From a virus (Duplodnaviria; Heunggongvirae; Uroviricota; Caudoviricetes), in the IMG/VR virus record IMGVR_UViG_2534681978_000010: DNA of 8,200 nt. One strand, given 5' to 3'. A program made the position numbers and the translations under genes. The notes under the pieces are model-generated. The model had not been told where the DNA came from and searched no databases. It was given only the letters and a program-made list of their open reading frames with translations. This document shows positions 746 through 3,700 of the stretch, in pieces; the first letter of the stretch is position 1, and every line of letters starts with the position of its first letter.

Positions 746-3700
746 TAATCCACTCCCACTTTTTTGTTGTACTCGCGGTTAAACCGATCCACGGCAACCT
801 TCATATCCCGCTCTACCGATTTCACCATCGCCGACTGCTGCGCCAGACTGAGAGAACTGTCGGCATAAATGGCATCACGCTGTTTACGCAAATCCTTCAG
901 TCTCTTCCGGGTATCCTGCATAAGCCCGTTCATCAACAATTTTCCGTTGTTCTCGTCAATGAACGCCGTTCTTTCTGCACCGGTCAGACTCTTCAGCTCT
1001 GCGTGATACTGCGCAACCTCTGTCATCCGGTCGTACATCTTCTGCTGGTCAACATACGGCATCACCTCACCCGAAATTTTCCCCAGGAAAGGCACCTGCT
1101 GTTCCGGTATATCAATACCATTCAGCGATTTCACCGCCGCATCCGTGGTTTTGGAAATGAAGCGCCCTGTACCACCAGAGATATAGTCAACCCAGAATTT
1201 CAGCGATTCCGGTGTGATATCCACCGCGCCGGAACGATACTGGCTGCCACCTGAGAACGCATTCAGCCAGAATGCAAACGCCTTGTACGCTTCTGGCGTT
1301 GAACGTCTTCCCAGCTGGCTGTCAGGTTTTGGTGTACCAAACGGCATGTTCTCCTGGTAAATCTGCGCCCCCATGAAGTTTTCATTCATGGAAAGATTCG
1401 CAAACGGACGCAGAATGGTCGGCGCTGCATTTTTCAGCAATGCCCCCGACAACGTTTCCGACGTCTCACTGCCAATCGGGCTGAATGCACCAAGCACACC
1501 ACCAACAACATTACCGGCAGCACGGGAAGCAGTCAGGTCACCCGCCGCCACACCTTCAGCGGTATGACCAAGCAGGAAGAAAACGTTGTACCCGTAAGGC
1601 AGAGGAATACTCCAGTACTCACCGGCCTTGCCCCCGAACACCGATTTCATAATGACGAGGTTACGCTCTTTCACATGAGACGGCACCTTGTCATACCAGT
1701 TAACCCCGTCATCATCCTCACCCGCAACACTGCGGTTAAGCGAGCCAAGCAGATAACCCGCTCCCACAGCTGCAAGCACGATTTTCTGCGGTACATTGAG
1801 ATTCTTCCAGCGAAGGCGCTCCAGTAACGGCCCGTCGCCATTAAGATGTCCGAGCGTTCTCACCAGGTTTGCGGTCCCCTGAATGCTGGCGTTGGCAAAC
1901 ATGTACAGCGAGTTCATCAGCGCTCCCTGCTCACCACGACGGTTAAAGTTCACCGTCATGTTTTTGGCAAGAGACGCCGCCTGCTGGCGTGACAAACCGG
2001 CATCACGGGCGTGCTTATAGGCAGAAAGACGCAGAGCGTTTTCAACCGCACCGTTGGCATCCTCGACAAGGTTAAGGAACGAATGCCATGCACCGATACT
2101 CTGGCCTTTCCATCCCCCCTTCGCCAGCGACACAAGGCGATCCATTTCCTTCTGCTGGCCCTCAAGGTCACCCATGTTAAACCAGCCGGTTTTACCTCCG
2201 TCCTCAACAAACTCTTTCCACACCTTCTGCCACTGTGCACCTTTGCCCGTGAGGGTTTTACCACGCAGACTGGCGTATACGGCTGACATGGCAGAACGGC
2301 TGTCTTTCACCACAGCCAGCGCGGATAAGTTATCCAGCCCTTTCAGTTTACCGTCGCTCCTTCCCTGCTCAGCCTTCAGGTTCATCACCGCAGTCTGCAC
2401 GTCACGGATGAAGTTACTGACCAGAAATTCCGGGTTATACGACGTGTTCACCGTTGCCAGGAAGCGGTTAACTTTCCCCAGCGTACGAACAAAGGCATTA
2501 CTGGTTTCCGGCCCCATACTCTTCATCGCACGCATCAGGCGCGGATCATGAAGTTTAATGTAGTAAGTTTTGCCGTCCTTTTTGGTGGTGAAGTACCGAT
2601 CCGCCATCATTGCCATCGGTACAGGGCGTTCGACAACTTCGCGAATGGTTTCACCAGTTTCCTGGTCCTTGCGCTCTGCAATCACACGCATGGTATCCGG
2701 TCTGTCATCAGTGAATACCTGCCAGTAATCCTTGTCGGGATTATCCTGCACCAGTTTCAGGAAGGCGTTACCCACTTCATTTTTGCGATGGCGGATCAGC
2801 GATTCACTCAAATCCTGTATCGCCTGAGTGGAAGGAGACTGTGCCCGGGATGCACGCCCCATGGCCTGCCTACTTTCACGCCCGCCGATGGTGAAGCCCT
2901 TACCTGTACGGGGCAGTGACACCACACCGTCAACATCCTGACCTTTCAGGGGAACGTAGTAACGGTAGGCGTTCTGCCAGGCATCCACCACACCGTTCTC
3001 TTCAAGTCCGGCCTCACGGATAAGCTCACGGCGACGGGCCAGCATATCGTCAATAATCCCTGCCAGACGGTCATACTGTGCCTGTTTGCCACTGTTACGC
3101 ACACGCTGCATGATTTCCGCCGCTTCCGCGTTGGTCATCCCCGAACCGCCGTCCGGCATTTTCGGGTTGATTTTCGCAATATGCACGTTACGTTCCGGCG
3201 CGTGACGGGCGTAGAGGTACTCATCCAGATCGGCCTGCGCAATTTTGTAGTCCGCCAGCAATTTAGCCAGCGGCTGAACGTAGCGCTCCTTCATCACGTT
3301 CAGGTCGTTTTCCGCCTTCCCGTGGAAGAGTTCTTCAGCCATATAAGCGTTATTACTGTCATCCACTTTGCCGCCAGTTTTACGGATATTCTCCTGAACA
3401 GCCTTCAGCACCTGGAATTTATCCTGCATCTGGCGAACAAAACGCGATGCAATTGTCTCTTCCGGCGTCAGACTGCTGGTACGGGAGTAATACGGCCCCT
3501 TGCGAATATCTTCAGGATAGAGTATTTTATCAACAGAGCCGCGATAAGAATGTTCCCCTTTGGGCAATTGGAGCCCTCTGTGCAGAAGGTTATCGCGGCT
3601 TAATTTTTCTCTCCGGTACAACGTTAAACCGGTCATTTCCATACTCTTCAGTTTTTTCCCATTTTCCGTACCGTAAACAGAAGCCACCTTGTTGATTTCC

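Follow-up and report, generated by a model that had tools for sequence, protein, structure and literature searches.

Does a cluster of hydrophobic segments near the C-terminus of a giant phage protein act at a membrane, or does it form the core of a soluble domain? The question arises from an 8,200-nucleotide stretch of a Caudoviricetes virus (IMG/VR record IMGVR_UViG_2534681978_000010; hereafter the window). For this stretch, an initial annotation had proposed Gly/Ala-zipper segments near the C-terminus and, together with membrane-active elements at the other end of the chain, a trans-envelope conduit. The locus matters because Shiga toxin genes are disseminated by short-tailed Stx phages, whose giant virion protein is essential and has lately been put forward as the ejection protein.

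The giant protein and its C-terminal module

The giant open reading frame occupies positions 745–8199 on the minus strand and encodes 2484 amino acids within the window, its 5′ end being cut off by the window edge. Because its PHROG profile match begins at profile position 310 and the full-length orthologue in Shigella phage 75/02 Stx has 2793 amino acids, full-length residue numbers equal the window numbers used here plus 309. Sp5 ORF80 (ECs1242), phi24B gp47 and the 933W-type giant virion protein are orthologues, with 96–98% nucleotide identity to the window sequence. The gene closes the late operon, following the gene for the tail fibre, and a 10-bp GC-rich hairpin with a GGAA loop (714–737, minus strand; free energy −20.5 kcal/mol, z −6.6, without a U-run) starts 8 nt past its stop codon. 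Directly upstream lie the genes of four small Cys-free proteins, orthologues of gp64–gp67, among them an 83-residue protein with an exemplary glycine zipper and an essential protein; among the late-operon annotations, no homologues of T7 gp14, gp15 or gp16 were recognisable.

Pfam domains LPD5, LPD1, MuF_C and LPD38 mark the product as a virion protein of the polyvalent type, whose middle consists of enzyme-like effector domains and holds no tube-like repeats. The Sp5 paper had suggested an AAA+ ATPase domain in ORF80 (PMC5155283); our Pfam search of the giant reading frame gave no support for this AAA+/COG1483 assignment. Sp5 ORF80 is essential for infectious particles, and its deletion yields non-infectious, DNA-filled heads that have lost tail-fibre labelling (PMC5155283). 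In phi24B, mass spectrometry detected gp47 in virions, in which it is abundant; it is unseen in cryo-EM, with no ordered gp47 density at the portal, and its authors proposed it as an ejection protein that forms or contributes to a transperiplasmic conduit. Relatives of the giant protein, like these orthologues, are virion-associated and essential. In the available text of the phi24B and Sp5 papers, hydrophobic helices, elements at both ends and cysteine avoidance are not analysed.

The presence of gp47 in virions bears out the description of this product as a giant, Cys-free virion protein. Neither the window reading frame nor the full-length 2793-residue orthologue contains a cysteine (P about 5e-17 for 0 Cys in 2793 residues at the Cys rate of the neighbouring genes), and family-wide we counted 46 cysteines in 372,412 residues (0.012%).

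The flagged stretch lies at 1465–1797 on the minus strand, corresponding to residues 2135–2245 (2444–2554 in full-length numbering). Its minus-strand translation yields all three peptides singled out in the initial annotation, NVPQKIVLAAVGAGYLLGSL...FFLLGHTAEGVAAG...AAGNVVGGVLGAFSPIGSE, which are thus real and correctly numbered for the window reading frame. The plus-strand reading of 1465–1797 was rejected, as it gave no sensible protein, and small embedded reading frames at 1373–1841 were set aside because the minus-strand frame is conserved as protein down to 28% identity.

Most of the stretch falls within a Pfam match to LPD38 (PF18857; 1084–1701, minus strand, residues 2167–2372), which scores 157.5 bits against a cutoff of 27 (E 5.3e-46) and covers profile positions 2–189 of 189. 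The first segment sits just upstream of the Pfam boundary at residue 2167, yet within the conserved module, which extends back to about residue 1536 (nt 3594; PHROG 14770/10691). A profile search with the C-terminal module matched 22,280 clusters, and in all of the 150 best hits the match ended at the protein C-terminus, in proteins of 586–5181 amino acids. The LPD38 module is the invariably C-terminal, ~650-residue conserved end of giant (2–5 kaa), nearly Cys-free polyvalent virion proteins. Among cultured phages, it was found in ~60-kb genomes, and its podophage carriers comprise Stx phages, Ralstonia GP4-like, Bcep22-like and Vibrio phages. The domain has the same C-terminal position in Burkholderia phage JC1 gp69/Bcep22 gp75 and in E. 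coli phage PTXU04_00025.

The available text of the survey of polyvalent proteins reports LPD38 only in phage-type proteins (Iyer et al. 2017, PMC5512222). Judged against that text, the giant protein is a direct member of the class with no difference in kind: it carries LPD5, LPD1 and MuF_C beside LPD38, amid late virion genes. Both the LPD38 domain and the ejection-protein idea for phi24B gp47 are already published; in the LPD38 literature available in part to us, we found no description of a function, structure or membrane property.

Conservation and predicted fold of the three segments

By the classical criterion, a transmembrane segment has ~19 or more contiguous apolar residues and either a Kyte-Doolittle (KD) mean of 1.6 or higher across 19 residues or an apparent free energy of insertion that is close to zero or negative. 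The apolar core of segment 1 (IVLAAVGAGYLLGSL; nt 1738–1782, minus strand, residues 2140–2154) is the most hydrophobic 15-mer of the window reading frame (KD 2.01), and segments 3 and 2 rank as its 4th and 5th most hydrophobic 15-mers. Over 19 residues, however, the maximum KD is 1.35, under the 1.6 threshold, and the Hessa free-energy sum on a simplified scale is +5.8 kcal/mol. Across 168 homologues (median identity 41%, down to 28%), the median KD over 19 residues is 1.33, with 26 of 168 reaching at least 1.6; on the simplified scale, not one of the 168 has a Hessa sum at or below zero, and a single one has a sum of 2 or less. The apolar run of segment 1 comprises 16 residues in 118 of the 168 homologues and 20–25 in some. 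Transmembrane competence by standard scales is thus not borne out, and the helices are not constitutive transmembrane helices.

The single sequence, moreover, carries a hydrophobic signal that does not exceed chance: among 500 composition-preserving shuffles, an equally hydrophobic 15-mer appeared in 33%, an apolar run of at least 15 in 20% and a three-segment cluster in 12%. The case therefore rests on family conservation, and it is this conservation that gives the cluster its significance. Columns 2140–2154 are essentially never charged in the 168 homologues, with acidic residues only at 2152–2153, in about 10%. In 133 of the 168, no other 19-mer within the C-terminal 620 amino acids is as hydrophobic as segment 1. 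The core of segment 1 drifts in sequence while hydrophobicity and the flanking K and N-R are retained. That the segments are meaningless chance patches or constitutive transmembrane helices is very improbable: shuffling reproduces the single-sequence signal and segment 1 is the top hydrophobic peak, but the apolar character, flanks and small-residue face are conserved down to 28% identity, which refutes a chance patch, and the sub-threshold values, the apolar run of typically 16 residues and the soluble type of this virion component speak against constitutive membrane helices.

AlphaFold2 applied to the modelled C-terminal module (748–2229, minus strand, residues 1991–2484) gave a mean pLDDT of 81.7, with 85–95 over the flagged stretch, and predicted all three segments as helices in a compact alpha+beta domain. 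Segment 1 is predicted as a 24-residue helix (1723–1794, minus strand, residues 2136–2159; model helix 146–169). Conserved Q2138-K2139 and N2155-R2156 bracket its core, and small residues at 2141, 2143, 2147, 2148, 2152 and 2159 line one face. An acidic EDDDG motif follows (1705–1719, minus strand, residues 2161–2165; D2162 99% and D2164 96% conserved), and then a predicted beta-hairpin that covaries with segment 1 (1603–1662, minus strand, residues 2180–2199). The near-invariant IPLPYGYN motif (1585–1608, minus strand, residues 2198–2205) leads into segment 2, predicted as an amphipathic helix (NVFFLLGHTAEGVA; 1543–1587, minus strand, residues 2205–2218; model helix 215–228) in which F2207 and G2211 are conserved and positions 2215/2216 frequently charged. 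Segment 3 (1471–1530, minus strand) comprises a second predicted amphipathic helix (residues 2224–2239; model helix 234–249) and an F-S-P-I-G motif with F2239 conserved in 96%, P2241 in 100% and G2243 in 87% of homologues. Segments 2 and 3 thus carry near-invariant motif residues themselves, in a region dense in such polar, Pro and Gly motifs (EDDDG, KERN, IPLPYGYN, FSPIG and NENF).

Mean-field direct coupling analysis (DCA) reproduced the beta-hairpin (pairs 2181–2200, 2182–2197 and 2185–2196) and linked segment 1 with the hairpin, segment 2 with segment 3 (2213–2227) and segment 3 with a conserved loop (2228–2290); with Neff 162 for 361 columns, individual pairs are noisy and the method is a weak proxy for helix exposure. 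Going by the model and the alignment, the flagged stretch probably represents three alpha-helices at the start of the LPD38 core; in the folded module, they would make up the apolar centre of its compact alpha+beta structure. A search for structural matches to a pore-former, a membrane protein or a solved member of the colicin, Bcl-2 or diphtheria T-domain type found none.

Glycine-zipper patterns occur within the apolar helices of this sequence, as A2144xxxG2148xxxG2152 and G2229xxxG2233xxxG2237. Across the 168 homologues, small residues are retained at 2141, 2143, 2147, 2148, 2152, 2159, 2234 and 2238, whereas no such conservation holds at 2144, 2229 and 2233. Of the Gly/Ala zipper initially described, the patterns are present in this sequence and a small-xxx-small spacing is kept in the family; the strict zipper is only partly conserved. 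Glycine zippers and GxxxG helix-packing motifs of transmembrane helices were reportedly described by Kim and colleagues in 2005 and by Kleiger and colleagues in 2002, and zipper-type motifs occur in soluble helix packing too. Segments 1 and 3 resemble the transmembrane type in their (G/A/S)xxxGxxxG pattern but differ in that the strict C-terminal zipper is only partly conserved and that the true zipper cluster of these giants lies near the N-terminus; zipper motifs number 84 per 10,000 residues there, against 6.4 at the C-terminal site and 1.6 in the central region.

Hydrophobic elements at both ends and known ejection proteins

The N-terminal Gly/Ala-rich hydrophobic cluster has one member inside the window (TIEGAALGAAMGAPFGAVAG; 7852–7911, minus strand, residues 97–116) and a second outside it, at full-length residues 181–205. 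That hydrophobic elements occur at both ends, as originally noted for this one protein, holds family-wide: in 118 full-length giants, hydrophobic 19-mers numbered 21 per 10,000 residues in N-terminal residues 101–450 and 38 at 200–400 amino acids from the C-terminus, versus 1.2 in the middle. The C-terminal site is 31-fold enriched over the ~2000-residue middle of the same giants. Because the other globular domains of these proteins almost never hold such 19-mers, segment 1 does not look like an ordinary core helix.

We compared these features with those of characterized ejection proteins. T7 gp15 and gp16 and P22 gp7, gp20 and gp16 contain 0 Cys, and their top hydrophobic segments are Gly/Ala-rich with a KD over 19 residues of 0.65–1.44; those of T7 gp16, at 1.3–1.44, are likewise sub-threshold. 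The giant protein has the same composition signature (0 Cys and Gly/Ala-rich sub-threshold segments), which is our own comparison and not a published definition. Like T7 gp16 and P22 gp16, gp20 and gp7, it is Cys-free and, to judge from its orthologues, capsid-packaged, with segments in the same KD range. Unlike T7 gp16, with which it shares no homology or fold match, it is a protein 2–4 times the size and includes domains of the effector type. A test for homology to T7 gp16 came out negative (hhalign probability 0.1%; BLASTP E 0.45 over a 29-residue Gly-rich stretch), and a shared 'VGGVLG' string was likewise rejected as evidence of homology. Soluble T7 gp16 has its putative transmembrane regions in a globular fold within the virion; in vitro, the protein inserts into liposomes, and models have it crossing the inner membrane once ejected.

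A second precedent is the N4 virion RNA polymerase (vRNAP, gp50), a giant of >3000 amino acids that, like phi24B gp47, is invisible in reconstructions. It is proposed to pass as beads on a string through a ~35 Å channel and to be anchored by hydrophobic interactions of its N-terminal domain with the inner membrane. The two proteins differ in that gp50 is unrelated in sequence and lacks LPD38, and the N4 channel is made from separate small ejection proteins, gp51 and gp52, shown to be active in bilayers, with the giant as cargo.

A hidden anchor, a soluble core or a conduit

That the LPD38 core helices double as a hidden element for membrane anchoring or insertion after ejection is a plausible reading by analogy, to which we give slightly less than an even chance. 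Segment 1, with its 15–16-residue almost uncharged core and conserved small-residue packing face, and segments 2 and 3, an apparent amphipathic helix-turn-helix bearing near-invariant motif residues, would supply the element. The giant protein would exit the capsid via the narrow tail channel, unfolded or loosely folded; on exit the helices would become exposed and could anchor in or insert into the membrane, much as has been suggested for the putative membrane-crossing regions of T7 gp16. This would hold the chain by its C-terminal end at the inner membrane or the ejectosome, the glycine-zipper cluster near the N-terminus may act at the opposite end, and the variable enzymatic middle domains would be delivered as cargo. 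The likeness of the segments to those of T7 and P22 ejection proteins counts in favour of this proposal, as do the almost uncharged core of segment 1, its 31-fold enrichment over the middle of the giants, the family-wide scarcity of cysteine and the membrane anchoring proposed for N4 vRNAP. Taken as a whole, the combined reading of LPD38 core helices and hidden anchor is our best explanation, held tentatively.

Several observations weigh against a hidden anchor. No segment reaches the transmembrane threshold, an apolar run of typically 16 residues is shorter than a bilayer-spanning helix would need, no homologue has a Hessa sum at or below zero and Asp or Glu occurs mid-segment 1 in about 11%. 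Near-invariant polar, Pro and Gly motifs in such number are what one would expect of a folded domain with a specific binding or catalytic function, and any globular domain requires a buried helix. Neither homology to T7 gp16 nor a structural match to a pore-former or membrane protein backs an anchor, and the lost tail-fibre labelling of the Sp5 ORF80 deletion points to a morphogenetic or docking role.

Much of this evidence would fit a purely soluble protein, in which the segments are the hydrophobic core of a globular LPD38 that never contacts a membrane, a serious rival that we consider rather less probable than not. Such a domain might target the giant protein to the procapsid, dock it at the portal or in the tail lumen (in the manner of the terminal domains of N4 vRNAP or of the T7 core stack), bind the DNA at its leading end, or have an enzymatic activity that has so far escaped recognition. 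A soluble core is favoured by the compact, confident AlphaFold2 fold, by covariation contacts between the helices and conserved polar elements and by the dense near-invariant motifs, including the two aspartates of EDDDG. The sub-threshold hydrophobicity with its mid-helix acidic residues points the same way, as do the invariant C-terminal placement, which would suit a packaging or docking signal, the DNA-filled heads without tail-fibre labelling in Sp5, and the co-occurrence of the module with one portal/tail lineage (phi24B resembles GP4; JC1 resembles 933W). Predicted fold, covariation and conserved polar motifs together place the segments inside a compact, confidently predicted domain, the outcome that had been named as telling against a membrane role. 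This placement is not decisive, because the putative transmembrane regions of T7 gp16 are also globular inside the virion, with refolding proposed for their passage across the inner membrane, so folding in the virion is compatible with later membrane insertion. Against a soluble core also stand the scarcity of hydrophobic 19-mers in the other domains of the same giants relative to the segment 1 site, the drift of segment 1 within an apolar character that reaches transmembrane-like length and hydrophobicity in some subfamilies, and the phi24B cryo-EM maps, in which a protein docked at the portal is not seen as ordered density.

A strong form of the conduit model of the initial annotation, in which copies of the giant oligomerise, the C-terminal Gly/Ala helices line or form an inner-membrane pore and the chain itself is the ejectosome, appears improbable. 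It draws on the conduit role proposed by the phi24B authors and the abundance of gp47 in virions, on small-xxx-small faces that favour tight helix-helix oligomerisation, on hydrophobic elements at both ends and on the lack of recognisable T7 gp14/15/16 homologues in the annotated late operon. Against it, conservation at the C-terminal end extends to just one short apolar helix, enzyme-like effector domains instead of tube-like repeats make up the middle of the protein, and in N4 small ejection proteins make the channel while the giant is cargo. The four small Cys-free proteins encoded upstream are better channel candidates.

An extended form of the hidden-anchor proposal, which we regard as speculative and unlikely, would make LPD38 a hitherto unrecognised, universal membrane-docking or insertion module across >20,000 clusters, one that does the job of the C-terminal transmembrane region of T7 gp16 without being homologous to it. 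Joined by the glycine-zipper cluster near the N-terminus, it would allow a Cys-free chain of 2–5 kaa to bridge the envelope with both ends membrane-anchored; the chain would thread from the capsid, deliver its variable effector string and lead the end of the DNA to the inner membrane.

Were the helices merely a domain core, the finding would be ordinary. The hidden-anchor idea is directly testable by mutagenesis in the existing complementation system, and end-confined hydrophobic segments together with near-total Cys avoidance could serve as signatures for ejected proteins in phage genomes. If the apolar LPD38 helix is indeed a hidden anchor, it would provide the first mechanistic handle on the giant virion protein of these phages and would bear on a very large, uncharacterised effector-delivery family of >22,000 clusters.

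The giant gene and its surroundings

Minus-strand ORF 745..8199 (2,484 codons) fills nearly the whole window, and minus-strand translation of 1465-1797 (ORF residues 2135-2245) reproduced exactly the three hydrophobic, Gly/Ala-rich peptides quoted in the initial annotation (segments 1-3). A plus-strand reading of 1465-1797 was rejected, its translation being implausible throughout. The ORF start coincides with the window edge, and the apparent ATG at 8199 (window 8199-8200) is an internal Met. Since the 2,793-position PHROG 616 profile aligns to the ORF from position 310 onward and the Shigella phage 75/02 Stx orthologue has 2,793 aa, 309 N-terminal residues lie outside the window; the true start is thus placed 309 codons upstream, and full-length numbering adds 309 to the ORF residues used here. 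Nucleotide identity to the giant gene of Stx-converting phages of the 933W/Sp5 type is 96-98%, and 268 phage records match the DNA.

Pfam matches, all on the minus strand, were LPD5 (residues 742-891), LPD1 (1052-1131), MuF_C (1441-1530) and LPD38 (2167-2372, E = 5e-46), which are 'polyvalent protein' domains, LPD38 occurring in phage-type members only (Iyer et al., PMC5512222). Two HExxH zincin-type motifs were also present, HEWFH (residues 975-979, window 5263-5277 (-)) and HEIIH (1242-1246, 4462-4476 (-)), neither inside any Pfam match of the ORF. MuF-C was labelled a metallopeptidase in the phi24B preprint and an RNase-like PBECR domain by Iyer et al. (PMC5512222); one of the HExxH regions is more likely than MuF-C to be the peptidase.

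Orthologues have been studied experimentally. Sp5 ORF80 (2,793 aa) is essential, and its deletion leaves normal-looking heads and DNA packaging intact while tail-fibre antibody labelling is lost. Mass spectrometry finds the phi24B orthologue gp47 (2,811 aa) in abundance in purified virions, but cryo-EM does not show it; a 2026 proposal holds that it is an ejection protein packaged in the capsid and makes up all or part of a transperiplasmic conduit. Among other LPD38-bearing giants, that of Burkholderia phage JC1 (4,515 aa, LPD38 at 4195-4401) is virion-associated and that of E. coli phage PTXU04 is essential.

The giant gene closes the late operon; before it come a tail-fibre gene and several small genes of unknown function. 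Its four immediate upstream neighbours (218, 148, 83 and 421 aa; L001 12961-15603 (-), outside the window) all encode Cys-free proteins. Adjacency to the giant gene suggests that the 421-aa gene corresponds to the essential Sp5 ORF79. The product of the 83-aa gene, annotated 'bacteriocin', has the C-terminal sequence IGTGIGTGAAIGASVGGPVGAVAGAVIGGIAGSLF, a textbook glycine zipper, and scored 25.7 bits against Gly-zipper_YMGG, slightly under the cutoff. Virion proteomics of phi24B detected 'a homolog of a bacteriocin' and discounted it as contamination; it could instead be a true ejection protein of small size. On the other side, a GC-rich hairpin (10-bp stem, GGAA tetraloop; window 714-737 (-)) starts 8 nt past the giant ORF stop (-20.5 kcal/mol, z = -6.6; 0/200 shuffles equally stable). 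Lacking a U-run, it was passed over by the terminator scan; it may serve to terminate the operon or to stabilise the mRNA. Unrelated to the segments are the 3' end of a DUF551-family gene (23-343 (+)) and a 63-aa ORF (430-621 (-)) matching the small hypothetical gene 3' of the giant gene in related phages.

A predicted, conserved apolar helix at the Pfam boundary of LPD38

No 15-mer of the ORF is more hydrophobic than segment 1, IVLAAVGAGYLLGSL (2140-2154; Kyte-Doolittle hydropathy, KD, 2.01); segments 3 and 2 rank fourth and fifth. In the single sequence this is unremarkable: composition-preserving shuffles of the giant protein gave an equally hydrophobic 15-mer in 33% of cases and a three-segment cluster in 12%. 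The cluster nonetheless exceeds chance, because homologues conserve the apolar character of segment 1, and conservation across 168 of them led us to reject a chance patch.

Alignments comprised 62, then 168 homologues (median identity 41%, minimum 28%). In the latter, the segment 1 sequence drifts freely, yet charge is essentially never found in its 15 columns, an acidic residue occurring only at 2152-2153 (about 10%). Gly, Ala or Ser make up 71-100% at 2141, 2143, 2147, 2148, 2152 and 2159. Conserved Q2138-K2139 and N2155-R2156 flank the segment, and after it comes the near-invariant acidic motif E-D2162-D-D2164-G. Within the C-terminal 620 residues, segment 1 has the highest 19-residue hydropathy in 133/168 homologues. 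Two variants were seen: Asp or Glu mid-segment at alignment column 2152 (nt 1744-1746) in about 11% of homologues (for example, FAAMLDILNR), and a subgroup without the N-R stop, with a 20-25-residue apolar run and 19-residue KD up to 2.06. Segments 2 and 3 are amphipathic (hydrophobic moments 1.36 and 1.51 versus 0.69 for segment 1), with charge frequent at 2215, 2226 and 2230 across the 168 homologues, and sit in a near-invariant frame (P2199, P2201, Y2202, G2203, Y2204, N2205, F2207, G2211, F2239, P2241, G2243).

AlphaFold2, run with the 62-sequence alignment (mean pLDDT 81.7; 85-95 over 2135-2245), placed segment 1 centrally in a 24-residue helix (2136-2159), followed by the acidic loop, a beta-hairpin (2180-2184/2194-2199) and helices for segment 2 (2205-2218) and segment 3 (2224-2239), all encoded on the minus strand; beyond lie more helices, then an extended conserved loop rich in Pro and Gly, and finally long helices at the C-terminus. 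Mean-field DCA, a noisy burial proxy here (214 sequences, Neff 162), had top pairs matching the hairpin (2181-2200, 2182-2197, 2185-2196, 2176-2197). It coupled segment 1 with hairpin and motif (2148-2200, 2148-2181, 2150-2181, 2154-2191), segment 2 with segment 3 (2213-2227), segment 3 with the conserved loop (2228-2290), and segments 2 and 3 with the acidic loop (2177-2212, 2178-2237), as a compact folded domain centred on three helices would give. Among predicted viral structures, the model's only matches were the final portions of other giant polyvalent proteins from phages. Prediction, covariation and conservation together identify the segments as putative helices of the LPD38 core.

Hydrophobic ends and scarce cysteine in the wider family

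Searched with a profile, 1.84 billion representatives yielded 22,280 clusters, 8,463 of them reaching E = 1e-30 or lower. In all of the best 150 of the 22,280, the match ended a few residues from the C-terminus (protein lengths 586-5,181 aa, median 2,673). Cultured phages with the module have ~60-kb genomes and include Stx, Vibrio, Ralstonia GP4-like and Burkholderia Bcep22-like phages and one Bacteroides phage.

Membrane-active elements had been suggested at both ends of the chain. Counting 19-mers with KD >=1.3 in 118 full-length giants, we found hydrophobic segments confined to the two ends: per 10,000 residues, 21 at positions 101-450 and 38 at 200-400 from the C-terminus (that is, segment 1). 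The ~2,000-residue middle had 1.2, and the final 200 residues had 0. The description of the C-terminal cluster as a Gly/Ala zipper held in part: it is apolar and rich in small residues, but apolar glycine-zipper motifs were enriched over the middle only about 4-fold there, compared with 53-fold at residues 101-450 (118 giants). The true zipper cluster, made up of Gly/Ala-rich apolar segments, is therefore N-terminal (window 7852-7911 (-), plus full-length residues 181-205 outside the window). For the C-terminal element, a more apt description is a single conserved apolar helix rich in small residues, together with an amphipathic hairpin.

The giant protein is indeed Cys-free (0 of 2,793 residues versus a mean of 1.3% in neighbouring genes, P about 5e-17). 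Across 142 representative homologues there were 46 Cys in 372,412 residues (0.012%), and 117 had none.

Possible membrane anchoring and its alternatives

The flagged segments failed the usual transmembrane criteria. The best 19-residue KD was 1.35 against a threshold of 1.6, and the Hessa scale, summed in a simplified, position-independent version, gave +5.8 kcal/mol. Across the 168 homologues, median 19-residue KD was 1.33 (>=1.6 in 26), the Hessa sum was <=2 in only one and <=0 in none, and the apolar run was 16 residues in 118 and 20-25 in a minority. A constitutive transmembrane protein was rejected on these sub-threshold KD values and positive Hessa sums.

Proven ejection proteins look similar. 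T7 gp15 and gp16 also lack Cys, and in gp16 the four 19-mers of highest hydropathy (KD 1.30-1.44) are rich in Gly and Ala; P22 gp7, gp20 and gp16 have 0 Cys in 1,309 residues and top KD of 0.65-1.31, whereas the non-ejected P22 gp14 has 4 Cys. No homology between LPD38 and T7 gp16 was detected. VGGVLG(A)F, common to Gly-rich hydrophobic stretches of gp16 (~1196-1206, BLASTP subject coordinates) and segment 3 (2231-2239), was not significant (BLASTP E = 0.45) and is treated as convergent composition. The likeness is functional and compositional only. Our tentative reading is that the segments, besides forming the LPD38 core, are a hidden membrane-anchoring element, whose helices would be exposed as the chain threads out of the capsid.

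The main rival, somewhat less probable, takes LPD38 for a wholly soluble domain that serves packaging, docking or some other purpose, with segment 1 merely an unusually apolar core helix. The initial annotation named burial in a soluble globular domain as what would refute its model. The fold prediction and covariation point to such burial, but it does not discriminate for ejection proteins: T7 gp16 purifies as a soluble monomer and yet inserts into liposomes in vitro, and its putative transmembrane regions, folded in the virion, are proposed to refold and cross the inner membrane after ejection (Swanson/Cingolani review).

That the giant chain itself makes the conduit is possible but improbable. 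In N4, channels demonstrated in bilayers are formed by the small proteins gp51 and gp52, and the giant vRNAP is cargo, with anchoring proposed through hydrophobic interactions of its N-terminal domain with the inner membrane; here, the small Cys-free proteins encoded upstream are at least as good channel candidates.

Earlier publications already cover the LPD38 domain, the giant protein and the hypothesis that it is ejected. The new elements are descriptive: a conserved apolar helix just beyond the Pfam boundary, hydrophobic elements at both ends, and family-wide cysteine avoidance, which might offer a simple way to recognise proteins ejected via the tail into the oxidising periplasm.
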